In this document: one piece after another, positions 4,072-38,874 of the stretch | Position numbering within the stretch: position 1 is the first letter of the stretch | How the letters are laid out: each line of letters opens with the position of its first letter | Assembly (NCBI GenBank): GCA_045588325.1 | Contig: JAZNEA010000057.1 | Location: 1,089-65,088, forward strand | Source of the DNA: Clostridia bacterium | GTDB lineage: Bacteria > Bacillota > Clostridia > RGIG7378 | Length of the DNA: 64,000 bases | Reading direction: 5' to 3' | Notes under the pieces: model-generated | Database searches by the model: none | Seen by the model: the letters and a program-made list of their open reading frames with translations, nothing else | Told to the model about the DNA's origin: nothing | Made by a program: the position numbers and the translations under genes

Positions 4072-4674
4072 ATGAGAGCATTTGCACGCCCTATTAACGA
4101 GCTGATAGAGGAACTGGGCAAATTGCCGGGTGTAGGCCAAAAGTCTGCTCAGAGATTGGCATTTCACATCCTCAATATGCAGGATACCAAGGTGGATGCA
4201 TTGGTCAAGGCCATACAGACAGCCAGAGAGAGGACCAGGCTTTGTTCAGTTTGCTGCAATATTACAGACGAGGACCCATGTCCCATCTGTTCGGCGACAA
4301 ATAGAGATAGGAGCGTCATTTGCGTGGTACAGGACCCTAAGGATGTGGCCGCTATTGAGCGCACCATGGAGTACAAGGGATTGTATCACGTATTGCACGG
4401 TGCAGTCTCGCCCATGACAGGCATAGGCCCGGATGACATAAAGATCCGAGAGTTGTTGGTCAGATTGGGAGACGATCAGGTCAAGGAGGTAATCCTTGCC
4501 ACTAACCCCAACATTGAGGGAGAAACCACCGCATCTTATATAGCCAGACTTATGCGCACAATGAACGATATCAAGGTCACAAGGATTGCCCATGGTATTC
4601 CCGTAGGAGGGGACCTGGAATACGCAGATGAGGTTACCTTGGTTCGTGCCATAGAGGGCAGGAGAGAGATTTAA
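4072..4674 (+). CDS. recR: Recombination protein RecR
   Basis: It has an N-terminal HhH ([17 protein letters not shown]), a C4 zinc finger ([16 protein letters not shown]) and a Toprim domain. Confidence 0.95.
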
Positions 4675-4698
4675 TTTATTCGCAGGAGTATTTATTTA

Positions 4699-5961
4699 AT
4701 GGAAAAGAAAGTACCATTTAGTTTGTCAAGGGCTAAGGAGATTATTGCCGAATTCCCTACACCTTTCCATATTTATGATGAGGAGGGCATTCGTAGGACA
4801 GCCAGAGCATTGAACGATGCCTTTTCATGGAATCCAGGCTACAGGGAGTATTTCGCCGTAAAGGCATTGCCCAATCCCTTCATCATGAAGATTCTGCAGC
4901 AGGAAGGCTGCGGTGCAGATTGTTCCAGCTACACAGAATTGGAGTTGGCAGACAGCGTAGGATACAAGACAGAGGAGATAATGTTCTCATCCAATGAGAC
5001 ACCAGCCAACGAGTTCGAAAAGGCCCGTGAGCTTGGTGCTATTATCAACCTGGACGATATTACACATATCGACTTTTTAGCCAAGCACGGCGGCATACCG
5101 GAGAAGATCTGTTGCAGATACAATCCAGGTGGAGATTTCTTTATCGGCAATACCATCATGGGTAACCCCGGAGACGCCAAGTATGGTATGACTAAGCGTC
5201 AGTTGTTCGAGGCATTTGCAAAACTCAAGACCATGGGAGTAAAGGAGTTTGGTCTCCACGCATTCCTGGCCAGCAACATGACAGAGCAGGGATATTATCC
5301 CTCCCTCGCCAGGACTGTATTTGAGATAGCTGCAGAGTTACATAAGACCCTGGACGTTAAGATTTCTTTCATCAATTTGTCCGGCGGTATTGGCATTCCA
5401 TATACAACAGACGGAGAGCCTGTAGATATCAAACTGGTCGGAGAGGGCGTCCGCAAAGTCTACGAAGATACCATCCTGGCATCAGGTATGGATCACGTGG
5501 CCATTTATACAGAGCTTGGCAGATACATGACAGGCCCCTATGGTTATCTCGTAACAACAGTTGTCCACGAGAAGCATATATATAAGGATTATGTGGGCGT
5601 AGATGCATGCGCATGTAACCTCATGAGACCTGCAATGTATGGCGCATATCATCACCTGACAGTTTTGGGCAAGGAGAATAAGCCCTGTGACCACAAGTAC
5701 GATGTTGTAGGATCTCTCTGCGAGAACAACGACAAGTTTGCAGTTGACAGGATGATGCCCTTTACAGAGCCTGGAGATATTATCGTCATTCACGATACAG
5801 GAGCTCATGGATTCTCCATGGGATACCAGTATAATGGCAAGCTCCGTTCAGCAGAGCTCTTGCTGCGCCCGGATGGCTCAGTAAAGCTGATCCGCAGAGC
5901 AGAGACACCACAGGATTATTTCCAGACATTGGATTTTGCAAAGGGGAATTACGACGTATGA
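4699..5961 (+). CDS. PLP-dependent fold-III (Orn/DAP/Arg) decarboxylase, most likely diaminopimelate decarboxylase
   Basis: AVKALPN is the PLP-lysine motif, and the C-terminal GAHGFSMGYQYNGKLRSAELLL matches the LysA-family GAYxxSMxSNYNxRxRxAEVLV pattern. Carboxynorspermidine decarboxylase cannot be excluded without a search. Confidence 0.6.
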   Translation: MEKKVPFSLSRAKEIIAEFPTPFHIYDEEGIRRTARALNDAFSWNPGYREYFAVKALPNPFIMKILQQEGCGADCSSYTELELADSVGYKTEEIMFSSNETPANEFEKARELGAIINLDDITHIDFLAKHGGIPEKICCRYNPGGDFFIGNTIMGNPGDAKYGMTKRQLFEAFAKLKTMGVKEFGLHAFLASNMTEQGYYPSLARTVFEIAAELHKTLDVKISFINLSGGIGIPYTTDGEPVDIKLVGEGVRKVYEDTILASGMDHVAIYTELGRYMTGPYGYLVTTVVHEKHIYKDYVGVDACACNLMRPAMYGAYHHLTVLGKENKPCDHKYDVVGSLCENNDKFAVDRMMPFTEPGDIIVIHDTGAHGFSMGYQYNGKLRSAELLLRPDGSVKLIRRAETPQDYFQTLDFAKGNYDV

Positions 5962-6797
5962 TGCTTTTAGACGGTAAAAAATTAGCACAGGAGATAAAGA
6001 ATGATCTTAAACTCCGTGTTGCAGACATGGCAAACAAGGGAGTGGAGACCAGCTTGGCTGTTGTCCTCGTGGGAGATAATCCTGCATCTCACACATACGT
6101 TAATATGAAAGAAAAGGATTGCCATGAGCTTGGCATCAGATCCCTTAGATACGATTTGCCAGAGGACACAGATGAGGCTTCTCTGTTGGGACTTATCGAT
6201 CAGCTTAATGCAGATGATAGCGTTCACGGCATATTGGTTCAGTTGCCTTTGCCCAGACACCTGGACGAGCAAAAGGTTATCAGGGCTATTGATCCTGCCA
6301 AGGACGTGGACTGCTTTACTCCGGTTAACGTAGGCCTGTTGGCCACAGGAAAGCCTGTGTTTGCACCATGCACACCAGCTGGAATTGTGAGACTCATTAA
6401 GGCCAATGGCTTGGACATCGCAGGCAAGGACGTGGTTATCGTCAACAGGAGCAATATCGTAGGCAAGCCCCTCATGCACCTGATGCTCATGGAGAATGCA
6501 ACGGTTACAATTGCACATTCGCGCACAGCGAACCTCAAAGAGGTCTGCAGGAGGGCCGACATTTTGGTTGCTGCTGTTGGACGCAGAGAGATGTTCGATG
6601 AGTCCTATGTCAAGCCAGGAGCGGTTGTTATAGACGTTGGAGTAAATCGCAAGGAGGATGGCAAGCTGGCTGGCGACGTATGTTTTGAAAAGGTTGCCCC
6701 TATTGCTTCCGCCATAACACCTTGTGTAGGAGGCGTTGGTCCTATGACCAGAGCCATCCTCATGGAGAATACAGTGAGGGCCGCAGAGAATAAATAA
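5958..6797 (+). CDS. folD: Bifunctional methylene-THF dehydrogenase/methenyl-THF cyclohydrolase
   Basis: There is full-length similarity to FolD (...ASHTYVNMKEKDCHELGI...GILVQLPLP...GKDVVIVNRSNIVGKP...). It overlaps the upstream gene in an ATGA arrangement. Confidence 0.95.
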   Translation: MMLLDGKKLAQEIKNDLKLRVADMANKGVETSLAVVLVGDNPASHTYVNMKEKDCHELGIRSLRYDLPEDTDEASLLGLIDQLNADDSVHGILVQLPLPRHLDEQKVIRAIDPAKDVDCFTPVNVGLLATGKPVFAPCTPAGIVRLIKANGLDIAGKDVVIVNRSNIVGKPLMHLMLMENATVTIAHSRTANLKEVCRRADILVAAVGRREMFDESYVKPGAVVIDVGVNRKEDGKLAGDVCFEKVAPIASAITPCVGGVGPMTRAILMENTVRAAENK

Positions 6798-20021: not shown

Positions 20022-21422
20022 ATGATACCGTACGAAGGCAGGGAGCCATATATTTTCGTGAGTTATGCGCATAAGGATAGAGACATTGTCTTGTCCATAA
20101 TCGAGGCCATGTCTCAGCACGGATTTCGCATTTGGTATGATGCGGGCATAGAGGCCGGAACGGAGTGGCCTGAGTACATAGCTGAGCATCTGGAGAATGC
20201 AGCTGCGGTTATCGCGTTTCTGTCAGAATCCGCTTTGAGTTCTATTAACTGCCGTCAGGAGATTAATGAGGCCATCAATCAGAAAAAGGAGTTTCTGGCC
20301 ATTCACCTCCATGAGCTCACCATGACAGCAGGCATGCGTATGAGACTTAGCCTGATACAGGCAATGTTTATGTACCGACATACCAACATGGAGAGCTTTT
20401 ATAACTCTCTCTTCAATGCAAAGATTTTGAAACCATGCCTGAGTGAAATAGGACAAGTTGCTGAACAGCCAGTGACAGAGGTTGTACCTGAGACAAAAGC
20501 AGAGCCGGAGGCTTTGCCAGAATCCACCCCAGATGACTTTGTGATTAGTCAGGATGTGTTGATTTCATATAAGGGGAAAGGCGGTATTGTAGTCGTTCCT
20601 CAGGGAGTGAAAAGCCTTGGCTATGATATGATGGGGTATGGGTTGTGCGAAATAGCGACACCTGATTTTAAGAACGGATTCCAAAAAACCAATGAGATTA
20701 CAGAAGTTATTATTCCCGAAGGTGTAGAGGGTATTGGGTACAGAACCTTTGCTTATTGTGAGAATTTAGTCAGAGTTCACTTGCCAAAGAGCTTAAAATA
20801 CATAGATGACTTTGCTTTTTACAGATGTTTTGAGCTGCAGGAGGTAATTATCCCCCAGGATAGCCAGCTTGAGAGTATAGGCACAAGCGCCTTTGAGAAC
20901 TGTGCCAGTCTTACAAAGATGAGACTCCCAAAGAGAGTGACCTTTATTGGCAAGGATGCATTCAGGGCATGCAGGAGTTTGTCACATGTAAGTATCCCCT
21001 TGGATGCAAAGTTGGATAGGGTGCAGGAGGATACCTTTCACAACTGTTCGGGTCTTGAGGAGGTAACTCTTCCCAATAGCGTCGTAACTATTGAACCGAG
21101 AGCTTTTTATGGTTGCGAGTCCCTGTGGGACATAAACATACCTAATTCTTTGAAAGAGATCAAAGAGGCGGCATTCAAAAACTGCGAAAAGCTAGAATTA
21201 GTAGATTGTGGATGGCATAGTTCCCTGGAGAATATCGAAAAAGAGGCTTTCAGAGGATGCAGGTCATTGAAAACAATAAGTCTTTCGGATACCCTAAAGA
21301 CGATTGATGAGGATGCATTTGCAGAGTGTATGTCTTTGGCCAGTGCAGAGGTACCTAAGAAGACAAAAATGCCAGCGTTTAAGCAGGTATTCCCAAAGCA
21401 TACTGTTGTTAAGCGCACTTAG
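20022..21422 (+). CDS. Cytoplasmic TIR_2-domain protein fused to BspA-type leucine-rich repeats (TIR-LRR)
   Basis: The N-terminal ~130 aa (PYIFVSYAHKDRDIVLSIIEAMSQHGFRIWYDAGIEAGTEWPEYIAEHLENAAAVIAFLSESALSSINCRQEINEA) is a bacterial TIR_2 fold. There is no signal peptide. The C-terminal ~300 aa are LRR_5 repeats. A good RBS AATTGGAGGAAACATG precedes the start. Confidence 0.8.
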   Translation: MIPYEGREPYIFVSYAHKDRDIVLSIIEAMSQHGFRIWYDAGIEAGTEWPEYIAEHLENAAAVIAFLSESALSSINCRQEINEAINQKKEFLAIHLHELTMTAGMRMRLSLIQAMFMYRHTNMESFYNSLFNAKILKPCLSEIGQVAEQPVTEVVPETKAEPEALPESTPDDFVISQDVLISYKGKGGIVVVPQGVKSLGYDMMGYGLCEIATPDFKNGFQKTNEITEVIIPEGVEGIGYRTFAYCENLVRVHLPKSLKYIDDFAFYRCFELQEVIIPQDSQLESIGTSAFENCASLTKMRLPKRVTFIGKDAFRACRSLSHVSIPLDAKLDRVQEDTFHNCSGLEEVTLPNSVVTIEPRAFYGCESLWDINIPNSLKEIKEAAFKNCEKLELVDCGWHSSLENIEKEAFRGCRSLKTISLSDTLKTIDEDAFAECMSLASAEVPKKTKMPAFKQVFPKHTVVKRT

Positions 21423-26173: not shown

Positions 26174-26463
26174 TTGAGCCAACATGTTTTTTAGGAACAT
26201 TTGAGATCCCAAAGGATTTCATGAGGAAGAGCGGAAAGCTATATTATGGCGAACACCGTGCCTTCCGGTTCCCGGAAAAGCTTGAATTTAAGTTATTTCT
26301 AGTATAGGGAGTCTGTTAAAGACCCCCTATATTTTTTTATCAAAAATATAAGGTGCTATAAACGGATTAGTATATATGAATCTGTTGTTTGCATTTTTTT
26401 GAAGCGTTCGAGGTATTTTAACAAGAAAATTTCCCGAGCGCTTTTTTGCGTTTGGGGCAAAAG

Positions 26464-26479
26464 CGGAAACATGTTTCCG
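26464..26479 (+). promoter_or_regulatory. Perfect 16-bp palindrome CGGAAACATGTTTCCG just upstream of the XRE gene's RBS. It is a candidate operator.
   Basis: The palindrome is self-complementary and about 20 nt upstream of the TTG start. Confidence 0.4.
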
Positions 26480-26498
26480 GTTGAAGGAGGTTTAAAAA

Positions 26499-26834
26499 TT
26501 GTCGAGTTTTACAGCAAAAATGATAAAAGAGGCAAGGATTAATGCTAATCTGTCACAAGAAGAAGCAGCAAAAGCGTTAGGTATTACAGACCGAACTCTA
26601 AGGTCATTTGAAAACAATCAGCATCCGGTTTCGGTTGATGATTTATTGAATATGGCTAAGCTTTATAAAACGGACGTAAGGGAGTTCATCCTAGAAAACT
26701 ATGTTGAGGAAAAAGAAGAGCAGATTCTATGTAATCGGTATGGTTCTTTCCTAAAATTATATGATCAGCTATCGGATAGAGACAAGGAAGATGTAGTTTG
26801 GGTAATCAAGCAAAGAATCAATGGCACAATATAA
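26499..26834 (+). CDS. XRE-family helix-turn-helix transcriptional regulator
   Basis: The HTH_3 motif is ...LSQEEAAKALGITDRTLRSFENNQHPVSVDDLLNMAKLY.... It has a TTG start with an AAGGAGG RBS. Confidence 0.7.
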   Translation: MSSFTAKMIKEARINANLSQEEAAKALGITDRTLRSFENNQHPVSVDDLLNMAKLYKTDVREFILENYVEEKEEQILCNRYGSFLKLYDQLSDRDKEDVVWVIKQRINGTI

Positions 26835-26870
26835 ATATATGCTAATAGCATATACCAAAATGTGATAGAA

Positions 26871-26897
26871 TAAGCATATGCATTACGCATATGCTTA
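26871..26897 (+). terminator. Inverted repeat TAAGCATATGC-ATTAC-GCATATGCTTA followed by a T-rich tract. It is a terminator and/or operator between the XRE gene and the 421-aa gene.
   Basis: 11-bp perfect arms followed by TTTGTT. Confidence 0.45.
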
Positions 26898-26924
26898 TTT
26901 GTTATATACGAGATTATATGTTGA

Positions 26925-28190
26925 GTGTATGCTTATATCAAGCAAGTGATATGGAGGTGTCTTTCGATGTATAGAACAGAGGAAAGCAGCAAAATAGGTG
27001 AATATATTGGAAAGTTGATTGCTAGAAAGTATGGTAAGGATCGTCAGTTTGCAATTGAATATATAAAGTTAAGAGATGGGATAGATGAAGAGCCGGCCCT
27101 AGACGAAATTCAACGTGTAGCAAACAAAATATGTCAGATGAAAAAGATCGGAAAGGGAATACAGATTAATGATTTGCCAATTCTCTCAGAGTTATTGGAA
27201 GTTTCTGTTGATAGTATTCTCAGTGCTGGAAAGGTAGCCAAGCCAGCTCCTACCAGGACGACAAATTATTCTGTAGCTTTTTCCAAAGATAAAAAGATTT
27301 GGAAGGAATATATTGAGAGACCGGATAAACTAATTCTAAATGAGGACGAGTACGGAAAGACAGTTATTGATTATGCGATTGAGTTCGGAAATTATGGTTT
27401 ACTGAAATATTTGATTGATAACGATTATATTTATTTGATTGATGAGGATCAGCAAAAATATTGGGGAACATTTGGTTCAGGTACAACCATAGAAAGAAGA
27501 CCGCCTTTTGAATACGATTTGCTTGAATATAAGATGAAACAGAATGATAGCCTGAGAACAAGTATTATAGCTTTGGCCTTAGAGAATAAAGATTATGGGA
27601 TTCTTGATGAAGCAAAGGCGAGAGAAATACCTTCCCTATATGAAGCATCTTATTTCTATGGCACAGCTCTGGATGTTAAGAAGTATTACAATCAGCAGTT
27701 TATGGATCAGGTTGCCAGGGCATCGGATGAGGTGTTGGTCTACTTCTCATCAGAATTTGAGATAGAAACTAATAGGAAAGCTTTATGCAGATTGACTTTC
27801 CCTTATTTAGGAAAGCTGATTGATATGGCAATTAAGGCCAATAGAAAAGCTACAGCAACTATGTTAAAGAATGCTTCGAAGCATAACCAAGATGTGTTAA
27901 AGGAACTGAAAAAGATTGGCAAAGCTGCTGAAGATTCATTTTCTAGTATTCGACAGTATATGGATGAAAAATCTCTTATGGAAGGAATAATGCAGGATTA
28001 TCATTTTTACGAAGAGAATGATACAGTGTGCTTTCATTCGGGGATAAATTCAGCCGGGAACTTCCAGGGATTATTCTCGACTGTTGTACGAGTAAGTGTT
28101 TCATCTAAGGATGAATATATTAAATCTTTGATTGATGATGTTAATCGTTCATATAATCAGGTTAAGGATTTTGTTTACAAGGAGGTTTGA
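26925..28190 (+). CDS. Hypothetical protein with a split XRE-like HTH at the N-terminus and a ~330-aa helical C-terminal domain, reminiscent of RNPP/Rgg-type peptide-sensing regulators
   Basis: The N-terminus has ...IGEYIGKLIARKYGKDRQFAIEY...KIGKGIQINDLPILSELLEVSVDSIL, an HTH_XRE-like pattern, and the remainder is alpha-helical. The true start may be the ATG at about 26967 (MYRTEE...). Confidence 0.5.
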   Translation: MYAYIKQVIWRCLSMYRTEESSKIGEYIGKLIARKYGKDRQFAIEYIKLRDGIDEEPALDEIQRVANKICQMKKIGKGIQINDLPILSELLEVSVDSILSAGKVAKPAPTRTTNYSVAFSKDKKIWKEYIERPDKLILNEDEYGKTVIDYAIEFGNYGLLKYLIDNDYIYLIDEDQQKYWGTFGSGTTIERRPPFEYDLLEYKMKQNDSLRTSIIALALENKDYGILDEAKAREIPSLYEASYFYGTALDVKKYYNQQFMDQVARASDEVLVYFSSEFEIETNRKALCRLTFPYLGKLIDMAIKANRKATATMLKNASKHNQDVLKELKKIGKAAEDSFSSIRQYMDEKSLMEGIMQDYHFYEENDTVCFHSGINSAGNFQGLFSTVVRVSVSSKDEYIKSLIDDVNRSYNQVKDFVYKEV

Positions 28191-28193
28191 TTT

Positions 28194-28367
28194 ATGTGTA
28201 AGAGCTTTATGGATATGGAAGACGGAGATTTTTGTTTTACTACATCTGACAATATGGCAATGGACTCTGAGGGGCATATGATGATGCGTATGGGTGATAA
28301 CATGGCTATGGATATGGACTCGGGTGAATTACATATGGTTTCTTCATGGGATGACGATGATGAATAG
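28194..28367 (+). CDS. Small Met/Asp-rich acidic peptide (57 aa) not present in the ORF track: MCKSFMDMEDGDFCFTTSDNMAMDSEGHMMMRMGDNMAMDMDSGELHMVSSWDDDDE
   Basis: An ATG sits 3 nt after the upstream stop. There is an unusual run of MxM/MMM motifs, and no signal peptide. Confidence 0.3.
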   Translation: MCKSFMDMEDGDFCFTTSDNMAMDSEGHMMMRMGDNMAMDMDSGELHMVSSWDDDDE

Positions 28368-28388
28368 GTGATTTCTTTTGAATTTTCG

Positions 28389-28444
28389 TTGACGCATACG
28401 GAATCCGTGTACATAATAAAGGTAGGTATATACGAAATCCGTAT
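28389..28444 (+). promoter_or_regulatory. Promoter (TTGACG, 17 nt, CATAAT) with two near-palindromic operator-like sites, TACGGAATCCGTGTA in the spacer and TACGAAATCCGTATA at about +15
   Basis: Two copies of a TACGNAATCCGTRTA dyad spaced about 33 bp apart, immediately upstream of the HTH gene at 28459. Confidence 0.5.
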
Positions 28445-28458
28445 ACAGGAGGTGCAAG

Positions 28459-28731
28459 ATGAAAGACTTAGAGTATATCGTAAACGGAATCATTGTTGAA
28501 GATGAGAATAAGGCAGAGCAAGATGAAGCCAGAAAGAAAAGAATGCTTGCATCTGCTTTTGTAATGGTAAGAAACAAGACCGGTATGAATCGCAAAGAGT
28601 TTGCTGCATGGCTAGGAATACCTTATCGAACAATGCAGGATTGGGAACTCGGCAACTCACAGGTCCCTGAATATGTTCTTAGACTCGTTGCCTATAAGGT
28701 AATGATTGAAAAGGAAAGGGGGAACATATAA
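28459..28731 (+). CDS. Small helix-turn-helix DNA-binding protein (90 aa)
   Basis: ...MNRKEFAAWLGIPYRTMQDWELGNSQ... is an HTH of the XRE/Cro type. It is translationally coupled (ATGA) to the downstream membrane protein. Confidence 0.6.
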   Translation: MKDLEYIVNGIIVEDENKAEQDEARKKRMLASAFVMVRNKTGMNRKEFAAWLGIPYRTMQDWELGNSQVPEYVLRLVAYKVMIEKERGNI

Positions 28732-29036
28732 TGAGAATACTAAAAGCGATTTTGATGGCACCAGTTAGAGTGATCGTATTTTTTATCCAGCTTGTATTAA
28801 CGTTGGGTGTAGCTATATTTGGCGCAGCCGGTGGCATTGTTACAAAGGCTGGAGAAATAGTAGGAGGCCTTTTGATTTTAGGATGCCTTCTTTGTGTTGC
28901 ATCCGGACAGATTTCTGGAGATATCTTTTTAAAGATGTTCCTTGGTGGAGTTGCATTCGGAGCAATCCCTGCTGCTGTTACAAAGCTTGGTGAAGAGGGA
29001 ATTTTTGCTATTAAAGGTATCATAGGAAGAATTTAG
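28731..29036 (+). CDS. Small glycine-zipper membrane protein (101 aa, 3 predicted TM helices)
   Basis: It has hydrophobic GxxxG-rich segments (GVAIFGAAGGIV; GGLLILGCLLCVASG; GGVAFGAIPAAV). Confidence 0.5.
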   Translation: MRILKAILMAPVRVIVFFIQLVLTLGVAIFGAAGGIVTKAGEIVGGLLILGCLLCVASGQISGDIFLKMFLGGVAFGAIPAAVTKLGEEGIFAIKGIIGRI

Positions 29037-29046
29037 AAGAAAAGAG

Positions 29047-29079
29047 AATGCTTAGAGGCCAGTTCCATCAATTTGGAAT
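29047..29079 (+). terminator. Rho-independent terminator after the membrane-protein gene (GGCCAGTTCCA...TTGGAATTGGCC + TTTTT)
   Basis: A ~12-bp stem with one mismatch, followed by a T-run. Confidence 0.55.
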
Positions 29080-29162
29080 TGGCCTTTTTCAATATTGTAC
29101 TTTATTGAAAAAAGAGTTTGACAATCTCCTTCAATATTGTATAATGGTCTTGACCAATAATG
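29080..29162 (+). promoter_or_regulatory. Sigma-A promoter (TTGACA, 16 nt, TATAAT) embedded in three related operator-like sites. Two are CAATATTGTA half-palindromes and one is a perfect 18-bp palindrome CAATAATGTACATTATTG.
   Basis: Near-consensus -35 and -10 hexamers. The repeated dyad overlaps the -10 and the +1, as expected for an autorepressed RHH/HTH operator. Confidence 0.55.
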
Positions 29163-29188
29163 TACATTATTGAAGGAGATTGAAACAG

Positions 29189-29557
29189 ATGCATAATTTA
29201 GCATTACATTTAACTGATGTTCAATATGGCGAATTATTTGTAAAATCGCAAATTGAGGGATTATCCATAGACGCTTATATAAAAAAGACACTTTTCGAAA
29301 CCGATCCGGGAATATTCACTCCTAAAGAGGCTATCAGAAGAGCTATGGAAAAATATGACATAGGGGAATATTTTGAGCTTAGGGATCTATATTCAGATGA
29401 AGAATGGTCAAGTATGGAGCGCGGAGAAAGAATTGCTTTTGGACGAAACTTTTTTTCTTTTACCAGTGTCATTGAACCAGGAAAAGTAAAACTTGTTCAA
29501 GATACGGGAAATAATGGTAGAAGAGCAAAGTACGAATTATTAAAGAAGAAAATGTAG
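29189..29557 (+). CDS. Hypothetical protein with an N-terminal ribbon-helix-helix (CopG/Arc/ParD-like) DNA-binding domain and a ~70-aa C-terminal extension
   Basis: NLALHLTDVQYGELFVKSQIEGLSIDAYIKKTLF fits the RHH beta-alpha-alpha pattern. An AAGGAG RBS lies upstream. Confidence 0.45.
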   Translation: MHNLALHLTDVQYGELFVKSQIEGLSIDAYIKKTLFETDPGIFTPKEAIRRAMEKYDIGEYFELRDLYSDEEWSSMERGERIAFGRNFFSFTSVIEPGKVKLVQDTGNNGRRAKYELLKKKM

Positions 29558-29587
29558 AGAGGAGCCTTTGTTAGGAGGGGATGCTTC

Positions 29588-30025
29588 ATGACAACAAGAG
29601 AATTGAAAGAAAAGCTTAAAAACTCTCAGGAGACATATCCAGTATCAAGTGCATATGATGCAACTCATGGTCAAAGGAAAGGTGTTCATTGGAACAATCA
29701 AAAGGAACACCTTTTGCCGTGGCTTGATGCACAGGAGACTCATGGTTATGGTGGGTTTACTAGATTAAATATCAATACGGATGCCGAAAGAATGTACAAT
29801 CATCTGTCGTGTCCAGAATGTCTTTTATGGTTATGCGAAGCTTCTGGAGTGCCTTATGATGTTGTTAATGCGGCAGCTGAAAAAGCAAAGCTTCATGAAA
29901 AAGTAGTTTCCAGAGCAGCTTCAATTCGTAGAGATATACCGTGGAGTGAGGTAGAGAATAGGCTTAATATACCAATAGAGAGAACAAACACTTGCTTGGC
30001 TTTGCAAACACGTCACAATGTGTAA
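29588..30025 (+). CDS. Hypothetical protein (145 aa), with no recognisable domain
   Basis: The ORF has a GGAGGGGATGCTTCATG RBS context. It has island-type AT-rich codon usage. Confidence 0.45.
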   Translation: MTTRELKEKLKNSQETYPVSSAYDATHGQRKGVHWNNQKEHLLPWLDAQETHGYGGFTRLNINTDAERMYNHLSCPECLLWLCEASGVPYDVVNAAAEKAKLHEKVVSRAASIRRDIPWSEVENRLNIPIERTNTCLALQTRHNV

Positions 30026-30125
30026 TCGTATGTTTCTGGAAAAGCGGTAGCATTTCTTCCTTTTGCCCTATTTGGGAGTTTGATCGAGAAAAAAAGGTTG
30101 GGAAATCAGTTATAACGAACAACGC

Positions 30126-30518
30126 ATGAAGAAGAATCCAATTATTCAGAACCTCCATTTTTCGGACAAAACAGACGAATTTAAGGAAATACTTTTGGAT
30201 ATAGGAAAGTTTGCAACAGCAATAGAACAGCCCTATTTTGCAGATGTTTTTCGTAATGCATACGAGTCTTTGTGCGGTTCAGAAACTATCGAAGACGACA
30301 ATATTCCCAAACAACTCCCCAACGAGTTCAAATCTATATATTATGCGGTAGATAAAGCCGATGTGTTTGGTGCTATGGGGTCTTGGAACGATTCGCCGCC
30401 TTATTATGCGCACCAAAAAGGATTGGATAAGGAATATAATGAGTTATCAAACGGTCTGCTTGTTCAAATACGCTATCATTTGATGTATGTTACCAATGAG
30501 TGTTGGAAAAGAGATTGA
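30126..30518 (+). CDS. Hypothetical protein (130 aa), possibly an orphan immunity-type protein
   Basis: A small soluble protein in an array of unrelated small ORFs next to an RHS-CT cassette. Confidence 0.4.
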   Translation: MKKNPIIQNLHFSDKTDEFKEILLDIGKFATAIEQPYFADVFRNAYESLCGSETIEDDNIPKQLPNEFKSIYYAVDKADVFGAMGSWNDSPPYYAHQKGLDKEYNELSNGLLVQIRYHLMYVTNECWKRD

Positions 30519-30705
30519 GTACCATCTCCATCTTTGCGTGCAACAACTATTAAGAGCAAATAATAGGACAAGCTTAATAGACAAATTAAATCTCCCTACT
30601 GAGAAAGCGGTGGGGAGATTTTGCTTTTGTTGAATTATCAGAGTTCTTATATTATGCTTATGGTGTAGAGCAGATAAAGGTGTGTTCCTGAGTTGGAGTA
30701 GATAT

Positions 30706-31191
30706 ATGATCGTTTCATTTGATTTGGATGATACCCTTTTTGTTTCACCAGACAGGGCAAAAACAGAAAAAGAGTTAGTCTTTCCTTTGAATAAGATCTA
30801 TAAGGAGAGAATGAGACAGGGGACAAGAGACCTGTTCCAGCAGCTACATGCAAGAAACATTGACACATGGATATATACGACGTCCTTTCGAACAGAAAAG
30901 TATATTCGGAGATTGTTTAAGCACTATGGCATAAAAATCACGAATGTTGTTAATGGGGAAAAACATTTAAAAGAGGTCCAGGGAATCAAAAAGGATCCCA
31001 TGCCGTCGAAATATCCTTCGAGATATCGTATTGATTTGCATATAGATGACGATATTTCCGTCGCACAAAATGGCAAATTGTATGGCTTTAAGGTGCTAAT
31101 TATTAAGGAAGAAGATGATGAATGGGCATCTAGTATTCTGGCAACCGTGGACGGAATGTTGCAACGAACCAAGCAAGGAAAATCGGAATAG
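30706..31191 (+). CDS. HAD-superfamily hydrolase-like protein
   Basis: The N-terminal motif I is SFDLDDTLF (DxDxT), with downstream ...IDDDISV... (motif IV-like). Confidence 0.55.
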   Translation: MIVSFDLDDTLFVSPDRAKTEKELVFPLNKIYKERMRQGTRDLFQQLHARNIDTWIYTTSFRTEKYIRRLFKHYGIKITNVVNGEKHLKEVQGIKKDPMPSKYPSRYRIDLHIDDDISVAQNGKLYGFKVLIIKEEDDEWASSILATVDGMLQRTKQGKSE

Positions 31192-31251
31192 CTAAGTATA
31201 TTGTTATCTTTTTGTAAAATGATATATTTTTTATGTAAGGAGGATTGTTTT

Positions 31252-31911
31252 ATGAAAAAGTTATTATGTTTGTTTTTGGCAATTGTTATGCTGTTGGGCC
31301 TTTGCGGCTGCTTTGATGGTGGCACAGATGATATTCGTGGCGAGATTAACGCCGAGCCTACCCCTAACGAGCCGGAGTTCTCACTTGGCGCCACGTCTGG
31401 CAACTCTTATACCAATGATTTCCTGGGACTAAGTTGTGTTCTGCCTGCGGGATGGGTTTTTTATACTGACGAGCAGATTATGGAACTCAATAACATAGCA
31501 AAGGATATGATTGACGACGAACAGGTTTCCGACCTCCTCAAAAATGCAACCATTGTTTATGATATGACCGCTTCTCATCCAGATGGTAGTTCTATAAACA
31601 TAAATATGGAAAAGCTTAACGCTGTTCAGCAGCTGACCCTCAATTTGAAAAGTATGCTGGAGGGACAGATTAGCACGATTGTCTCTACTTATCAGAACAT
31701 GGGATTTACCGATGTCAATGTGGAATACCAAAAGATAATGGTCGATGGCAAGGAGTTTGATGGATTAAAACTTACTGCAAAGATTCAGGGTATTGCATAT
31801 TACGGAGAGCTCCTTGCATTTAAGAGGGGTAGCTATGTTGCGAATGTTTCAATTGGATCTATTCAGACAGACAAGAGTGAGATTATTTGGAGTTGCTTTG
31901 AGGTTGAATAG
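31252..31911 (+). CDS. Lipoprotein of unknown function
   Basis: The signal peptide has a lipobox (MKKLLCLFLAIVMLLGLCGC). An AAGGAGG RBS lies upstream. Confidence 0.6.
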   Translation: MKKLLCLFLAIVMLLGLCGCFDGGTDDIRGEINAEPTPNEPEFSLGATSGNSYTNDFLGLSCVLPAGWVFYTDEQIMELNNIAKDMIDDEQVSDLLKNATIVYDMTASHPDGSSININMEKLNAVQQLTLNLKSMLEGQISTIVSTYQNMGFTDVNVEYQKIMVDGKEFDGLKLTAKIQGIAYYGELLAFKRGSYVANVSIGSIQTDKSEIIWSCFEVE

Positions 31912-32052
31912 AGTGCCATGGCAAAATTAGGACGTATTCTTAAAGGATCTTCTAATTCATGACGTTTTCCAGGCCCCGCTCTTTGGTTTGCACAAATCAA
32001 AGAGCGGGGTCAAATATATGGAGGAAAATATGAAAATATATTCTATTAAGAA

Positions 32053-32110
32053 ATGGACTGCGCGCAATAATGTAACACCCTCTGTGCTACCATATGCATA
32101 GAGTAGGAAC
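32053..32110 (+). repeat. Direct repeat copy 1 (~57 nt, imperfect): ...TGGACTGCGCGCAATAATGTAACACCCTCTGTGCTACCATATGCATAGAGTAGGAAC
   Basis: It matches 34083-34141 (core 35 nt, 31/35 identical, plus an upstream arm resembling the 3' end of the immunity-like gene). Confidence 0.65.
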
Positions 32111-32387
32111 TATTGGATCCGTGGTATAAACGCACTATAGTTAACCAGGCCAGGTCAGGGTTAAAATTCCTGCCCTGGCCTTTGTTTTCTAATTAGGATT
32201 CTAGCTTTATAACTATAGCCGTATTAATTACGGATATACGTAATCCACCTCGTTTTCTTTTTGATTAGAAGGCGCCTTGCCTAAAATGGCACGAATTTGT
32301 TTCTCTAGGTAACGACGACCTTGTTGACGAATAGGAATAGATGTTCCTTTGGCTGTATTTCCGTTTGTTCCATCAGTAGCAGATTAA

Positions 32388-33380
32388 ACTGTATCCTATG
32401 GTTACACAGATAGCAGCTGGGCAGATTTGCTTACATCTTACAAGGGAAAAACCATAACCTATGATGCAATAGGCAATCCCCTAGACGATGGTACATGGGA
32501 CTATGTATGGGAGAGAGGCAGACAGCTTAAGTCCATGGAGGGAGCATCTGTAAAGTGGACATACACCTACGATGCAAATGGTCAGAGATTGACTAAGACC
32601 AACAATACTCTCACATATCACTATATCTATGATGGCATCCAGTTAAAGTATCTAAAGGTAACACAGAAATCCGGACAGAGTACAAACACGGTATGTGAGA
32701 TGTACTTTGAGTATGGACAGACAGGTCTCATGGCCATACAATATATTAGTAGCAGCTTGACAGACACATACTATGTAGTAACCAATGCTCAGGGAGACGT
32801 TGTAGCCTTGGTGGATGGTAATGGCACGGTGGTTGTAAACTACACCTATGACGCATGGGGTAAGCTACAGGCCATGACAGGCTCTAAAGCCAGCACCGTA
32901 GGCAAGTATAACCCCATCCGATATAGGGGATATGTCTACGACACAGAGACACAGCTGTACTACCTGAACACAAGGTACTATAACCCAGACATGGGTAGGT
33001 TCATTAATGCGGATTCCTTACTTAGCCGAGGATCTGTTCTTGGAAGCAATATGTTTGCCTATTGTCTTAACAATCCGGCAAACATGGCAGATACCACAGG
33101 TGAACTTCCATTTTTCCTTGTGACTGCTGCTATAGGTGCAGTTATTGGCGCTATCATTGGTGGTGTAGTTGCTGCAAAGAGTGGCGGAAATGTTTGGGCT
33201 GGCATAGGGATTGGCGCTGCTGCCGGAGGACTAGCAGGAGCGGGTTTGGGCGCAGCGGCTGGAGTGTTGTTGGCTGGCAGTGCTACGGCTAGCACAGCAG
33301 CAGTAGTGTCTGGTGCAGGAATGGTTGCAATGGCAGCAAGTACTGGTGGTGTGGTCGCAAGCTTCTGCTGCATTTTGTAA
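32388..33380 (+). pseudogene. Orphan, 5'-truncated RHS/YD-repeat protein C-terminal fragment with a glycine-zipper hydrophobic toxin tip
   Basis: YD repeats are visible (YDANGQRLTK, YDAWGKL, YRGYVYDTETQLYYLNTRYYNPDMGRFINADSL). The RHS core-end motif is ...NPANMADTTGE. A 95-aa Gly/Ala-rich hydrophobic C-terminal tip follows. The only in-frame stop is 3 nt upstream of the start, there is no ATG or RBS, and no RHS N-terminal part anywhere upstream. Confidence 0.7.
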
Positions 33381-33515
33381 TCAAGCAAGTGGTGTAGTAA
33401 ATGCATTTATTTCAAACAGTCTCTATCGTGGAGTAGATAGTGTCTTTTGGAAGGTCGAAATGACTGCGCTCTTAAACAACCCTAGAGTTACAGAAATAAT
33501 CATTCATATTTTCGA

Positions 33516-34106
33516 ATGAGTTTGGAGGAATGTGTGAAACGTTATTTTTATATCACAATTCACTTCTCTCCTGATTATGAAGGGACAGTGTTTTCAAAAT
33601 ACCATGATGATCTTTATATAAATACCGAAACAGGAGAGATATATCGCAAAAGATTGTTGTATGATTTTGGTTGGGGGCAAGAGAATGGATTTGAATTAAC
33701 ACCGCAGTTGTCATTCGAGGAGTTGATTCAATTGGTTGAGAGTCCAATGGTATTACCTCGAAAGAAGTTTTGGAAAAAATACACCAAAGAGGAAATTCAA
33801 CAAGCTGATATTTGGCGTAGCAACTTATATGGTGCAGTTGCGGTGATAATGCAAGATTATGTAAAAGATCTTATTGAGTTCCTATCGGCCAGGGTTGAGA
33901 CAGATTACTTTTCAAATCCAAGTATACGAGATAATTTCAAATGTTTCTCTTTTGACTCGGAAAAAACAAGAGCGGAGGGTAAGATTCCAGGTGGAGTTCT
34001 TACACAATCATATGAAGACATTTTTAAGAAATACCCTCAATGGGAAAGAATTTCTTCGAAGATTATTAACCAAGTATACGTACTGGACTGCGGCGAAAAT
34101 AAGTAG
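33516..34106 (+). CDS. Putative cognate immunity protein of the RHS C-terminal toxin (196 aa, unknown family)
   Basis: It lies immediately downstream of the toxin tip on the same strand and is a soluble protein. This position is conserved for polymorphic-toxin immunity genes. Confidence 0.45.
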   Translation: MSLEECVKRYFYITIHFSPDYEGTVFSKYHDDLYINTETGEIYRKRLLYDFGWGQENGFELTPQLSFEELIQLVESPMVLPRKKFWKKYTKEEIQQADIWRSNLYGAVAVIMQDYVKDLIEFLSARVETDYFSNPSIRDNFKCFSFDSEKTRAEGKIPGGVLTQSYEDIFKKYPQWERISSKIINQVYVLDCGENK

Positions 34107-34141
34107 CACCCTCTGTGATACCATATGGGTAGAGTAGGAGC
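34083..34141 (+). repeat. Direct repeat copy 2, covering the last ~24 nt of the immunity-like gene plus 35 nt downstream
   Basis: See copy 1. Confidence 0.65.
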
Positions 34142-34524
34142 GGGCAAGGCAAACAATAATAGTAAATACGTGATATGTAGTTGGCTAGGAGCATACCGAA
34201 GAAAACAGTGTGGCACAAAGAAAGAAGAAAGCATGGCGCGTTCCAATACATAGAGCTATTCTATAAAAGGAAATGTTCCCAACATGTAGGGTATAGGCAT
34301 TTATCGAACAAATATCTAAAGTTTAACCTGAGGTATGGTAGTTGCAAATATGTCTATGTAGGTTGTTATTCGAGTCATCAAATTAATATTATAAAATCTA
34401 CGCTAAATAAGGATTAGGTTGTAGGTAATGCTGGACAAAAGCAAAATATGGATGTTTTGGTTTAGTAGTTACTAATGTATCTTTTTTGATAGTGTCGTTT
34501 GGGAAGCAGCACAGGAGACTAACA

Positions 34525-34980
34525 ATGGAATATATAATAATTTTATTTATCCAAATTTTGATCATGTCTTTAATCCTTTTCGGCAGGAAAGATAATGCGC
34601 GTTTGATAAAAAAACTAGATAGTACTTTTTTAATAGTCATGTGGATTTTTCAGGGATTATGTATTATAGGTAATGTCGTTTTATTGTTTGTTGCTAAAGA
34701 TATGATGATGTATGTTCTTGAATTCCATGTTTTTATAGCAGGTATCATACTGATGATATTTGATCCTATTGGAAAAAGACTACACTTTCAAAGGTTAACG
34801 AATATTTTAATAGAAGATAATCTGATTTCATTAGATACGGGATCTATTAGACGATATATAGTAGAAAAATACGGCTTGATATATTCTACAAAAGAGATTG
34901 ATAAATACATAACTAAAATTATAGAGAATCAAAAGAAAATAGATCTAAAACATCAGAAAAAGGGAAAAAACGATAGATAA
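34525..34980 (+). CDS. Small polytopic membrane protein (about 150 aa)
   Basis: It has four hydrophobic helices (IIILFIQILIMSLILF; FLIVMWIFQGLCIIGNVVLLFV; FHVFIAGIILMIF). Start taken at MEYIII.... Confidence 0.4.
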   Translation: MEYIIILFIQILIMSLILFGRKDNARLIKKLDSTFLIVMWIFQGLCIIGNVVLLFVAKDMMMYVLEFHVFIAGIILMIFDPIGKRLHFQRLTNILIEDNLISLDTGSIRRYIVEKYGLIYSTKEIDKYITKIIENQKKIDLKHQKKGKNDR

Positions 34981-35099
34981 TTAATTCGCTAGTATTATTC
35001 AGCATTTGCGATTTCCCAGCGGGCATATTGCTTCAGTTGCCTTATTTCTGCATTTTGATGTAAACTAAACCTACAAATACTTATTCGGAGACAAAATGT

Positions 35100-36083
35100 A
35101 TGTTAGTTGTTTTAGTTGGCGGCACGTTAAAGGTGGCTAAGGACAGCCGCAAGTATTTTCAAGATAATGGGTTCCAGATAATCCAGAAGTACAACTATTG
35201 GCCCCAGGATACCATAACCGAGCATTATGATAAGTTTGAAACATGCACAGAAGAGGAGATCAACCTGTGTGAGTTCCAGTACCCTGTCCACAACGGAATA
35301 ACAGGATTCCGAAAGGCGCAGATTATTGACGCTGTCAGAGGTAGGACCAATGCCCTCATGACAGGGTCTCCGGACAATCTCGACTTTTTTAGACAGTTAA
35401 AGGCAGCTTTCAACAAGAATATCAGGTTGGTTTACCTGTACATCGACAAGACAAGCCTTGAAAGCATGACTCGCAAATTCATCGAGAGTGAGGAGGATAT
35501 CCAGCGCAGACTCAAAAAGGGTGGCGAGCTCCGCAAGATGTATATTAGTGAAAAGGCTCTGTTTGACAGGATTGTTGTGTATGAAGAGGACGGCGAACTG
35601 GGCATGGAGGCCTTGCACGTACAATACGACAGCATAATAGAGGAGGCAAAGAAAAATAACAACATTGTGGATCTGCCATATACGGGCTCGGACGGTTACA
35701 TATTTGTAAGTTATTCCCACGCGGATGATAATGAAGTTATGTCTGTGTTATCTGAATTACAAAAAGAAGGCTATAGAATCTGGTATGACGAGGGAATATA
35801 CGGTGGAGCAAACTGGAAAATCATGCTTGGAGAGAGGCTAGAGGGATGCACCGACTTTTTATTATTCTCGTCAAAGAGCTCTACCAAATCGAGAAATGTG
35901 TTTGCAGAGGTTGGTATGGCCCTGGATTTGCCGGAGGCTCATCCCATAGTTATCCGATTGGACGATGCAACCTTCCCCTCTGGGTATGAAATGTACTTAA
36001 AGGAGTATCAGAACATTCTTGCTAGCAAGGATAATCTGATGGATAAGCTGAAAAAAGCTTTGTCACCGGAGACAAAGCAATAG
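35100..36083 (+). CDS. TIR_2-domain protein with a ~190-aa N-terminal domain of unknown function, a paralogue of the TIR domain at 20022
   Basis: The C-terminal GYIFVSYSHADDNEVMSVLSELQKEGYRIWYDEGIYGGANWKIMLGERLEGCTDFLLFSSKSSTKSRNVFAEVGMA aligns motif-for-motif with the 20022 TIR (YIFVSY[AS]H.D...RIWYD.GI..G..W). The N-terminal MLVVLVGGTLKVAKDSRK... is weakly kinase/P-loop-like but not a canonical Walker A. Confidence 0.75.
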   Translation: MLVVLVGGTLKVAKDSRKYFQDNGFQIIQKYNYWPQDTITEHYDKFETCTEEEINLCEFQYPVHNGITGFRKAQIIDAVRGRTNALMTGSPDNLDFFRQLKAAFNKNIRLVYLYIDKTSLESMTRKFIESEEDIQRRLKKGGELRKMYISEKALFDRIVVYEEDGELGMEALHVQYDSIIEEAKKNNNIVDLPYTGSDGYIFVSYSHADDNEVMSVLSELQKEGYRIWYDEGIYGGANWKIMLGERLEGCTDFLLFSSKSSTKSRNVFAEVGMALDLPEAHPIVIRLDDATFPSGYEMYLKEYQNILASKDNLMDKLKKALSPETKQ

Positions 36084-36109
36084 GGATTTAGCCAACGATA
36101 TACGATTAT

Positions 36110-37011: not shown

Positions 37012-38874
37012 ATGAATCTGCGACGCTACTTGGTATGTTTGATGCTGCTGGTTATAACCATCTCAGTAGTAACAGGCTGCAATATCAGGCTGGTGTTCAA
37101 TCAGACAGAGGATTTGCCGACTCATAGTCCTGTTCCATCTGCTAGTCCGTCGTCTACGCCTACATCTACACATACGACGACGCATTCCCCTACAAATAGC
37201 CCTAGTTTTACTCCCGTGGCAACAGCCACACCTACAGCCACACCAACGGCCACGCCCACGGTTACACCTACAGCCACGCCCACGGAGACACCTACAGCCA
37301 CACCTACGGCTACTCCAACTCCGACACCCACCCCAACCCCTAAGCCAACACCAACCCCTAAGCCTACGCCCACGCCCACTCCACCCAGTGAGCCAATGCC
37401 TGACTCCTGGTGGTACGTGATTACAACTACAGCCAAGCTGCGTGCTGACTCCAGATCCTCTGCTGAGGTGCTGGAGGTTATCGACAATGGCCAGCTGATT
37501 AAGGTAATCTCCCAGCGAAACGGATTCGTTAAGGTGAAGTATAACGGCCGGGAGGGATATGTGTTGAGATCCAGTATCCAGCCAGTGGAGAACAAGGAGG
37601 ATTGCCCTCTGCCTAAGCTATGGCAGGCCAACTGCAACGAATACATAACATTGCGCAAAACTCCAGGAGGCTACGGCATCGACACGATTCCGGTAGGAGG
37701 AGTGATGGAGCTTAAGGAATGGCACGGCATATACGCCAAGGTAAAGTACGGCAACCTGACAGGCTATGTGCTGACCAGCCATATCAAACCTGCAGGAGAC
37801 AAATATTTTAAGAATCTGCTTAAGATTGTAGAGATTACCAGCCAGTATTCCTACTCCCAGATGTTGGAGGATATACAGGCGTTACAGAAAAAATACCCAG
37901 GTCTGATTACTCTGGACTCAATAGGCACCAGCGAACAGGGCAGGGATATTCCCGTCATGCGCATTGGCAACCCGGATGCGGAGCGCCACATAATGATCCA
38001 CGGTTCAATCCATGCCAGAGAGCATATGACAACCTGGCTCCTGATGGCCATGGTGGAGTACCAGCTGTCCCATGATACGGACTTTCTGGCAGATGTCTGC
38101 ATCCACATTGTGCCAATGGTCAATCCCGATGGAGTTATGCTGTCACAGACGGCCTCCTTTGCCCAGGCCCAGCTCAAGATATACAATGACGACCTGCAGC
38201 ACAAGAATACCTGGTACGGTAAGGCCCAGTATGCCAGCAAGTGGAAGGCCAACGCATTAGGAGTAGACCTTAACCGCAATTTCCCTGCAGGGTGGGAGGA
38301 TATTCCATCCAGGGGATTGCCCTCATCAGAAAAATTCAACGGAACTGAGCCGTTGGACGCAGCGGAGTCTCGCGCTCTGGCTGAATATACGCTAAAATAC
38401 ACGTGGGTGGCCACCATTAGCTACCACTCCTACGGCAGTTTGATTTATCACAACTTTGGCGAGAGGCAGGACATCAATCGCCAGTCCACATCCCTGGCCG
38501 AGGCGGTCAAGGCTGTCACAGGATACCTGTTGTCGGATGGAGACGAGGTCGAGGGTGGAGGCTACAGAGATTGGGCCATCGACGCCCTTGGCATCCCATC
38601 CATAACCGTGGAGGTAGGGTGCGCAGAACCGCCCCTGTTGGACAGAGAGTTATATTGCCTGTTTGCCAGGAATTATGACGTAATGCGTGCAGTGGCAGAG
38701 TGGGCTATGGAACAGGAGGTTCCACCAGAGAGGACAGAGGGTGACCCAGGACAGGAGACTCCTCCGGAACCAACAGAGGATATAGGTCAGGAGGCACCCC
38801 CGGAGCAAACAGAGGGACCTGAGCAAACAGAAGGAACAGAAGGAACAGAAGGAACGAATGGAGACATTGAATAA
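37012..38874 (+). CDS. Lipoprotein zinc carboxypeptidase of the M14 family (gamma-D-Glu-DAP peptidase-like) with a Pro/Thr linker, two SH3b domains and an acidic C-terminal repeat
   Basis: It has a lipobox (VTGC), two SH3b-like repeats (...[12 protein letters not shown]...; ...[17 protein letters not shown]...), and the M14 zinc motif [11 protein letters not shown] with a downstream ...SYHSYGS... motif. Confidence 0.8.
37198..37392 (+). repeat. Pro/Thr-rich tandem codon repeat (ACNCCNACN) encoding a [22 protein letters not shown]...[18 protein letters not shown] linker
   Basis: Visible tandem repeat, near-identical in unit sequence to the tracts at 9889-10030 and 40200-40330. Confidence 0.8.

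Follow-up and report, generated by a model that had tools for sequence, protein, structure and literature searches.

The locus examined here raises the question of whether the glycine- and alanine-rich (Gly/Ala-rich) hydrophobic tail of a truncated RHS open reading frame (ORF) is a toxin in its own right. The ORF is located at positions 32388-33380 of a 64-kb stretch of Clostridia DNA, hereafter termed the window; it is followed by an ORF of 196 amino acids (aa), and the pair is flanked by two imperfect direct repeats. The initial annotation had taken the tail for a membrane-inserting glycine-zipper toxin tip and the 196-aa protein for its immunity partner. Our analysis indicates, with a probability that we put at roughly 85%, that the locus represents an orphan RHS/Tox-ARC cassette, now decayed, of uncultured gut or rumen Clostridia, in which the toxin is dead and the immunity gene is intact. 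The features that carry this reading are given below, where numbers preceded by L and P denote related loci and proteins, respectively.

32388-33101, plus strand: 3' fragment of the YD-repeat shell of an RHS protein, ending in the RHS-associated core (Pfam and NCBIfam matches)
33102-33351, plus strand: Gly/Ala-rich hydrophobic "glycine-zipper" segment (ELPFFLVTAAIGAV...STGG), predicted pre-toxin module (86% nucleotide identity to L001)
33349-33351, no strand: junction of a 206-nucleotide (nt) deletion, with GTG microhomology (three-way DNA alignment; BLAST with L001 2958/3162, 3-nt overlap)
33352-33380, plus strand: out-of-frame ORF tail VVASFCCIL*, product of a frameshift
33352-33519, plus strand: last 55 codons and TGA of a predicted ADP-ribosyl-cyclase (Tox-ARC) domain, shifted by +1 against the frame of the RHS ORF (90.5% nucleotide identity to L001)
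33516-34106, plus strand: 196-aa ORF, likely immunity gene (synteny with intact ARC toxins)

The RHS portion is a 3' fragment of a much larger gene. The frame is open from 32388 to 33380 with a TAA immediately 5' (32385-32387), and its sole possible start codon is a TTG at 32427 without a Shine-Dalgarno sequence. Homology to the relatives begins at about 32388, which places the breakpoint at about 32385-32390, and the fragment aligns solely to residues ~1712-1978 of an RHS protein of more than 2,100 aa. It contains YD repeats (Pfam RHS_repeat PF05593, E value of 1e-6; TIGR01643, 31.4 bits against a cutoff of 15.8) and, at ~32847-33101, the RHS-associated core domain (residues 154-238 match TIGR03696 with 73.9 bits, cutoff of 32.5), which reads ...RYYNPDMGRFINAD...NNPANMADTTG. 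The cleavage-site motif at the end of the core, ...NNPANMADTTG/ELP, aligns with that of all homologues. No second RHS sequence was found within the 64-kb window. The annotation as a 5'-truncated orphan C-terminal fragment, devoid of start codon, ribosome-binding site and N-terminal body, was thus borne out. Exact-protein look-ups retrieved no identical protein on record for the RHS ORF, the immunity protein or the neighboring lipoprotein.

A second ORF in another frame (33313-33519), which the initial annotation had missed, encodes WSQASAAFCNQASGVVNAF...EIIIHIFE, with which the actual toxin domain terminates. Relatives that align with the full query (P0005, P0007, P0013, P0014 and P0068) run on for ~125 aa past the Gly-rich segment, with an extension that reads ...ADNISRAVNNVGTVLYSGG...TTIDPT...WSQASAAFC.QASG.VNAF...VE.P.L...EIIIHIFE, also written as ...AGAGLALVADNISRAVNNVGTVLYSGGEQARQAATTFANNTGGTTIDPTVIGQ...WSQASAAFCHQASGVVNAFVSNSAYRGADSIFWSVEMPTLLNNPRVTEIIIHIFE. 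Against the Pfam ADP-ribosyl cyclase family PF02267 (cutoff of 25 bits), the intact domain scored 29.1 bits in P0014 and 24.5 bits in P0007, and it matched the ARC toxins 9ro8 and 9ouf in the PDB with E values of ~2e-6. The W...S...SGEV motif and the catalytic-Glu motif (V)ELP(x)L align with those of ARC toxins, and TTIDPT stands opposite TLEST. These similarities argue for an ancestral toxin tip that was an ADP-ribosyl-cyclase (Tox-ARC) NADase domain, a predicted NAD(P)+ hydrolase. Bacterial ARC toxins kill by NAD(P)+ hydrolysis and depletion (PMC12356396, PMC12605009), and RHS proteins were already catalogued as carriers of Tox-ARC in 2012 (PMC3482391).

A three-way DNA alignment revealed that 206 nt present in both L001 and L003 are absent from the window, between GGTGG and TGTGGTC. 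The deletion takes the N-terminal half of the toxin domain, including TTIDPT, the counterpart of the active-site motif TLE(S/D)T in the alignment, and the half with the catalytic Glu survives out of frame. With a length not divisible by three, the deletion shifts the reading frame, and the RHS ORF ends in the artificial VVASFCCIL*; a complete ARC catalytic domain in one frame is not present in the window. The same toxin has been inactivated independently elsewhere, by an in-frame 87-aa deletion of the same domain half in P0011 and by frameshifts in P0057 and in L015 (9304-9960). As a separate observation on P0011, P0057 and L015, the linker region that is rich in Gly and Ala codons may be prone to deletion.

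What remained to be explained was the Gly/Ala-rich segment itself. A search with the RHS fragment returned 1,855 relatives, and the best 120 of them served for a census of this linker. Most of these 120 are 300-570 aa long and are thus RHS C-terminal cassettes rather than full proteins, with the core-end motif situated anywhere between residues 76 and 418 in the homologues. In more than half of the best 120, a module of the form LPFF..TAAIGAV.GA..GGV.AAK.GGNVWAGIGIGA..G... follows directly after the core-end motif, and within this set it precedes at least five unrelated C-terminal ends; these include the ARC domain, Tox-REase-7 (...GPLQQ.VDSG.IQ.FPL), a "...WATIEYPLL..." type, a "...DGHHRVADAI..." type and others. 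In intact relatives, the zipper region is never terminal, and a further domain such as ARC or Tox-REase-7 always follows. Because the module stands ahead of at least five unrelated ends, we consider it a shared pre-toxin module and not a toxin; judged by this distribution, the segment in the window is such a linker, and it is terminal there because of the 206-nt deletion and the frameshift. The description of the tail was accurate in so far as it is present, hydrophobic and contains seven GxxxG motifs, along with 20 [GAS]xxx[GAS]xxx[GAS] motifs, one strongly hydrophobic stretch and several weaker ones; its interpretation as the toxin tip did not survive the comparison with intact relatives, which continue into the ARC domain. 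The module scored 17.4 bits (E value of 0.004) against Glycine-zipper 2TM PF05433, under the cutoff of 24.2. Most plausibly, it would insert in the target membrane and carry the enzyme domain across.

The assignment of the 196-aa ORF as an immunity gene was corroborated. Its product is 72-87% identical to the proteins encoded behind intact toxins in L001, L003 and L021-23 (87% aa identity to the gene after P0007 in L001 and 72% to that after P0014 in L003; the gene after P0068 in L021-23 also matches), and the gene is found downstream of intact toxins in L001, L003, L013, L019 and L021-23. The ATG at 33516 overlaps the toxin TGA (ATGA), an arrangement shared by L001 and L003. A GTG at 33534, behind GGAGGA at 33524-33529, is the more likely start codon (190 aa), since most family members begin with MKRYFY. 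The 196-aa protein covaries with the ARC domain rather than the linker: where this linker leads into Tox-REase-7, a HEAT-type gene comes next. The family comprises 161 homologous protein clusters, none of them named, of ~183-190 aa in gut and rumen Clostridia. Three family members had no Pfam match at E values of ≤10, and neither an NCBIfam match nor a related solved structure in the PDB was found for the window protein, for which an AlphaFold2 (AF2) model reached a predicted local distance difference test score (pLDDT) of 84.9. The ratio of nonsynonymous to synonymous substitution rates (dN/dS) relative to L001 was 0.21 over 183 codons; purifying selection acts on the immunity gene, which is intact.

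We also determined how often this immunity gene occurs without its toxin, using 16 GTDB loci from species-representative genomes. The toxin accompanied the gene in only four loci (L013, L019, L014, where it is cut by the contig end, and L015, where it is frameshifted), whereas the remaining 12 contained the immunity gene without the toxin, several of them retaining 14-30 nt of the toxin 3' end. Together with the dead toxins of P0011 and P0057, this orphan majority indicates that the cassette usually ends by losing the toxin and keeping the immunity gene, a common and ordinary fate. The orphan gene most likely persists as a putative protection against the ARC-armed RHS toxins of neighbors.

The two direct repeats were analyzed along with the DNA at their edges. 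The features concerned, followed by the seven motif copies that an nhmmer model built from the repeats detected in five genomes, are the following.

32020-32025 and 32030-32101, plus strand: GGAGGA ribosome-binding site and vestigial 23-codon ORF (MKIYSIKKWTARNNVTPSVLPYA*), respectively; no family match
32054-32108, plus strand: junction motif copy 1, blocks TGGACTGCG / ACACCC / CATATG..TAGA (nhmmer E value of 5e-13)
34084-34139, plus strand: junction motif copy 2 (nhmmer E value of 2e-15; 82% identical to L024 6128-6182)
Window 32052-32110, plus strand: motif copy (nhmmer)
Window 34082-34139, plus strand: motif copy (nhmmer)
L024 6126-6183, plus strand: motif copy (nhmmer)
L004 11987-12043, plus strand: motif copy (nhmmer)
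L004 13057-13110, plus strand: motif copy (nhmmer)
L033 11736-11797, plus strand: motif copy (nhmmer)
L032 57-7, minus strand (inverted): motif copy (nhmmer)

The similarity of the two copies in the window is well above chance. Their best local alignment scored 68, as compared to 20.8 ± 2.7 for shuffled sequences (maximum of 38; z score of about 17), with a gapless 47-nt match at 83% identity and a 35-nt core identical in 31 of 35 positions; no chance matches of the 37-nt repeat core were found in the window. The annotated repeats are therefore real, and so is the vestigial ORF with its GGAGGA, which enters copy 1 from codon 9 on. The origin suggested for copy 2, as the conserved 3' end of the immunity gene, proved incorrect. 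Native immunity genes end in ...QVYV* or QVYR*, and the ORF is homologous to them up to 34082-34083, the very point at which the repeat sets in (34084); copy 2 thus does not represent the native 3' end of the gene. The immunity ORF in the window has lost its own stop codon, and its last seven codons and stop are supplied by motif copy 2.

Outside the window, the motif occurs in L024, L004, L033 and L032, the loci that hold the four proteins closest to the window in the RHS shell (P0002, 88%; P0003, 78%; P0010, 67%; P0019, 66%). It was found neither in the next relative, L034, nor in the other loci (about 25 checked), and exact-pattern scans did not detect it in JGI metagenomes (two patterns) or IMG/VR. 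The motif follows an immunity-like gene, precedes a truncated RHS fragment by 0-280 nt, or does both. Homology breaks off sharply at either edge in all seven copies; the blocks TTGGACTGCG, ACACCC and CATATGGGTA are conserved and the spacers have diverged. In three cases, the TGGACTGCG edge abuts truncated coding sequence. The copy in L032 (7-57) is the only inverted one. Its TTGGACTGCG end is in direct contact with the beginning of an RHS fragment that is truncated within ~35 codons of the truncation point in the window, and the contig ends 6 nt past the motif. A reading of the repeat as a structured RNA was rejected, as RNAalifold on the seven copies showed no conserved structure and no covariation; an Rfam scan of 26-37 kb at E values of ≤1 gave no match. 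From these comparisons we conclude that the repeats probably represent two copies of a lineage-specific ~56-nt cassette-junction element, and most likely they are relics of cassette joining or exchange and not a target-site duplication. The idea that the repeats are a signature of cassette recombination thus holds in that they are tied to cassette junctions, but not in the route proposed, recombination between conserved immunity-gene 3' ends.

Between motif copy 1 and the RHS fragment lies a stretch of filler DNA.

32109-32387, no strand: filler DNA, 279 nt, ending with the in-frame TAA
32147-32190, plus strand: terminator-like hairpin and T-tract inside the filler (fold energy of -24.1 kcal/mol, z score of -4.9)

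The filler resembles none of the fetched loci, plasmids or phages, and a BLASTN search of 31950-32400 against plasmids and phages gave no match. A minus-strand frame of 51 codons (32231-32383) was considered as a recombinase remnant and dismissed, given that it has no family match and a length within chance. A perfect 18-bp hairpin (31972-32011; -31 kcal/mol, z score of -7.3) follows the lipoprotein gene just before the 23-codon ORF. With two strong hairpins upstream (-31 and -24 kcal/mol), read-through transcription into the RHS fragment is unlikely.

The history that we propose would start from a cassette in which the end of the RHS shell and the core were followed by the ~95-aa Gly-zipper module, a Tox-ARC domain of ~125 aa and an immunity gene of ~183-190 aa, the latter presumably coupled translationally to the toxin through the ATGA overlap. 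In that ancestral protein, the Gly-zipper module would have been released together with the toxin after RHS autocleavage. The toxin of the window is inactivated in three ways: it lacks an N-terminal body, a start codon and a ribosome-binding site and stands behind two strong hairpins; the 206-nt deletion has taken the first half of the ARC domain; and the frameshift leaves the catalytic-Glu half unread. Several observations weigh against parts of this account. The 55-aa ARC remnant of the window scored 21.3 bits (E value of 2e-4) against PF02267, under the cutoff of 25. Imm74 and Imm63, the immunity families earlier tied to Tox-ARC (PMC3482391), gave no match to the immunity protein, whose likely role is assigned on the basis of synteny only. 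That the Gly-zipper module serves translocation is suggested by analogy with the glycine zipper of Tde1, and the inverted copy in L032 is not predicted by a simple relic model of the junction motif.

Four other explanations were weighed against a decayed Tox-ARC cassette. Were the tail a stand-alone glycine-zipper toxin tip that inserts into membranes and is neutralized by the 196-aa protein, its hydrophobicity, its GxxxG motifs and its weak likeness to Glycine-zipper 2TM would be accounted for, and there is a precedent in Tde1, whose N-terminal glycine zipper alone permeabilizes membranes (PMC10240207). However, the segment is terminal only through the deletion and the frameshift, intact relatives add varying enzymatic domains and hence differing immunity genes, the 196-aa protein tracks the ARC domain instead of the linker, and the frame has neither start codon nor ribosome-binding site and stands behind two hairpins, so that we assign this explanation hardly any probability. 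It is scarcely more probable that the locus is a silent reserve cassette that a full-length rhs gene from another part of the genome could re-arm through homologous recombination: orphan rhs of Salmonella has been reactivated in this manner (PMC3967940) and ~700 nt of shell and core are left as a possible homology arm, yet recombination with a toxin that is both deleted and frameshifted would yield a dead tip, and there is no full-length rhs within 64 kb. An artifact of metagenome assembly, in a repeat-rich family, might in principle have produced the truncation and/or the deletion, as the source is probably a contig (65 kb) of a metagenome-assembled genome and repetitive RHS cassettes break assemblies, which the L032 contig, ending 6 nt beyond the motif, may exemplify. 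The deletion junction is nevertheless clean, with its 3-nt microhomology, the flanks are 86-90% and not 100% identical to the relatives, so that a chimera of those contigs is not at issue, comparable decay is seen at independent loci, and other truncation points are common among orphans; we consider an artifact very improbable.

The remaining alternative concerns the repeats, which might be att-like sites, comparable to integron attC or pdif, that make the ~2-kb segment between them a mobile cassette inserted by site-specific recombination. The sharp boundaries of the seven copies, their conserved blocks with diverged spacers, the TGGACTGCG edge against truncated coding sequence in three cases, the inverted copy against an RHS fragment and the large serine recombinase genes near related cassettes or islands (L001, L025) all fit such a site. 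Against it, the segment has no recombinase or transposase in or beside it, the motif lacks a conserved hairpin or symmetry, no single-copy empty site was seen in L025-L031, and the motif is missing from JGI metagenomes and IMG/VR, its seven copies being confined to one RHS lineage. That the motif is a dedicated site for the insertion, excision or inversion of RHS toxin-immunity cassettes in one Clostridia lineage is therefore doubtful, and a mobile segment is unlikely. The decayed Tox-ARC cassette, with the repeats as relics of cassette joining, remains the preferred explanation.

Related loci illustrate the context in which such cassettes occur. In L003, two orphan cassettes stand behind an RHS gene of >2,100 aa with its immunity gene, and the second of them consists of the ARC toxin and its immunity gene, and L021-23 carry the same ARC cassette with only ~80 aa of RHS, beside housekeeping genes. 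The array in L022 (1783-4337) contains the ARC cassette and its immunity gene followed by an 89-aa Tox-REase-7 fragment and a HEAT-repeat gene. In L004, the P0002 orphan and the main RHS are 86% and 83% identical, respectively, to the shell of the window (32397-33014) at the nucleotide level, and from ~32910 on, the window matches the L001-type ARC cassette at 86-90%. Such a split in identity would be the expected mosaic of toxin-tip exchange near the core end. In L001, a gene for a large serine recombinase (4351-5967; Resolvase/Recombinase/Zn_ribbon/DUF4368) is located 450 nt past the immunity gene of the intact ARC cassette, and it starts where homology with other cassettes ends.

The locus is part of a low-GC island (26200-36100; 32-44% GC versus ~50% in the flanks) between the genes for pyruvate phosphate dikinase and a VTT/DedA protein. 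The content of this island differs in the syntenic relatives L025-L031, which carry genes for a large serine recombinase, an isochorismatase, a DUF6054 protein and the type I restriction subunit HsdR upstream of the same TIR gene. At the syntenic position, L025-L031 contain neither a motif copy nor an empty site and have a different gene, for a 184-aa membrane protein; 31725-34986 is therefore a replaced block within a variable low-GC island. Two genes encode TIR-domain proteins (20022-21422 and 35100-36083), one fused to BspA-type leucine-rich repeats and the other, at the right edge of the island, with an N-terminal region of ~190 aa that has no assignment; both may be defense genes. A HAD-like region (30605-31281) is 92% identical to L025 8380-9059, compared with 75-80% for the flanking core genes, which suggests a recent exchange of island genes, and the lipoprotein gene (31252-31911) is represented only by a 91-aa remnant in the relatives that share the HAD-like region. 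After motif copy 2, 34140-34985 comprises an AT-rich spacer (32% GC) and a gene for a predicted membrane protein of 151-164 aa; this protein has no family match, and the stretch is absent from the syntenic relatives. Further downstream, 37012-38874 encodes a carboxypeptidase of the M14 family that has SH3 domains and a long linker of Thr/Pro repeats (...PTPKPTPTP).

The main result is a correction: the supposedly new RHS toxin of glycine-zipper type is what is left of an NADase toxin of a known kind, and, as far as its sequence can tell, no part of the cassette other than the immunity gene is functional. Three further results emerged. An unnamed family of ~183-190 aa is likely the immunity partner of RHS-borne ARC toxins and is usually orphan; the Gly-zipper module between the RHS cleavage site and many toxins is a candidate membrane-translocation device of Gram-positive RHS toxins; and a lineage-specific junction motif marks cassette boundaries. 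If the motif were a recombination site, it would imply an integron-like or shufflon-like exchange of cassettes for polymorphic toxins, unlike homologous recombination, the model usually adopted for rhs orphans. On present evidence, none of the three side results alters current understanding.

In its organization, the locus resembles the orphan rhs-CT/rhsI modules that are found beside or apart from a main rhs gene (Poole et al. 2011, PMC3150448; Koskiniemi et al. 2014, PMC3967940): a 5'-truncated rhs with the core end and a polymorphic toxin is directly followed by an immunity gene, either in arrays (L003, L004) or alone (the window, L021-23). It differs in its host, Clostridia of the Gram-positive type, and in having no main rhs within 64 kb, and the internal deletion means that its toxin, unlike those modules, cannot be re-armed. 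The intact relatives share the W...S...SGEV and ELP-type catalytic-Glu motifs with the ARC toxins Tac1/Tci1 (PMC12356396), Pantoea ARCtox/ARCimm (PMC12605009) and Tox-ARC (Zhang et al. 2012, PMC3482391), whereas the ~95-aa Gly-zipper module ahead of the enzyme and an immunity protein other than Imm74 or Imm63 set them apart, and the copy in the window is a pseudogene. As in Serratia, where immunity proteins to an Rhs NADase (PMC10539506) are encoded intact while the toxin is absent or dead, the immunity gene has outlived its toxin; the immunity family and the organisms are different, and the protection is putative here. Tde1 requires its N-terminal glycine-zipper region for passage of the enzyme through the target membrane (PMC10240207), and both Tde1 and the module described here have tandem GxxxG motifs over a transmembrane segment just ahead of the enzymatic toxin domain; they have no sequence relationship, and the carrier is RHS here as opposed to Tap1/VgrG of the T6SS (type VI secretion system) for Tde1. 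Even as a toxin, the tail would have been preceded as a membrane-active RHS tip by Tse5, an already known pore-forming Rhs toxin (PMC9637101, PMC10684867). A description of Tse5 as a glycine-zipper toxin was looked for in the paper and not found, and Tse5 serves here solely as an example of a pore-forming Rhs tip. In Tse5, the membrane-active region is the toxin, whereas the hydrophobic region studied here would be a linker that precedes an enzyme.

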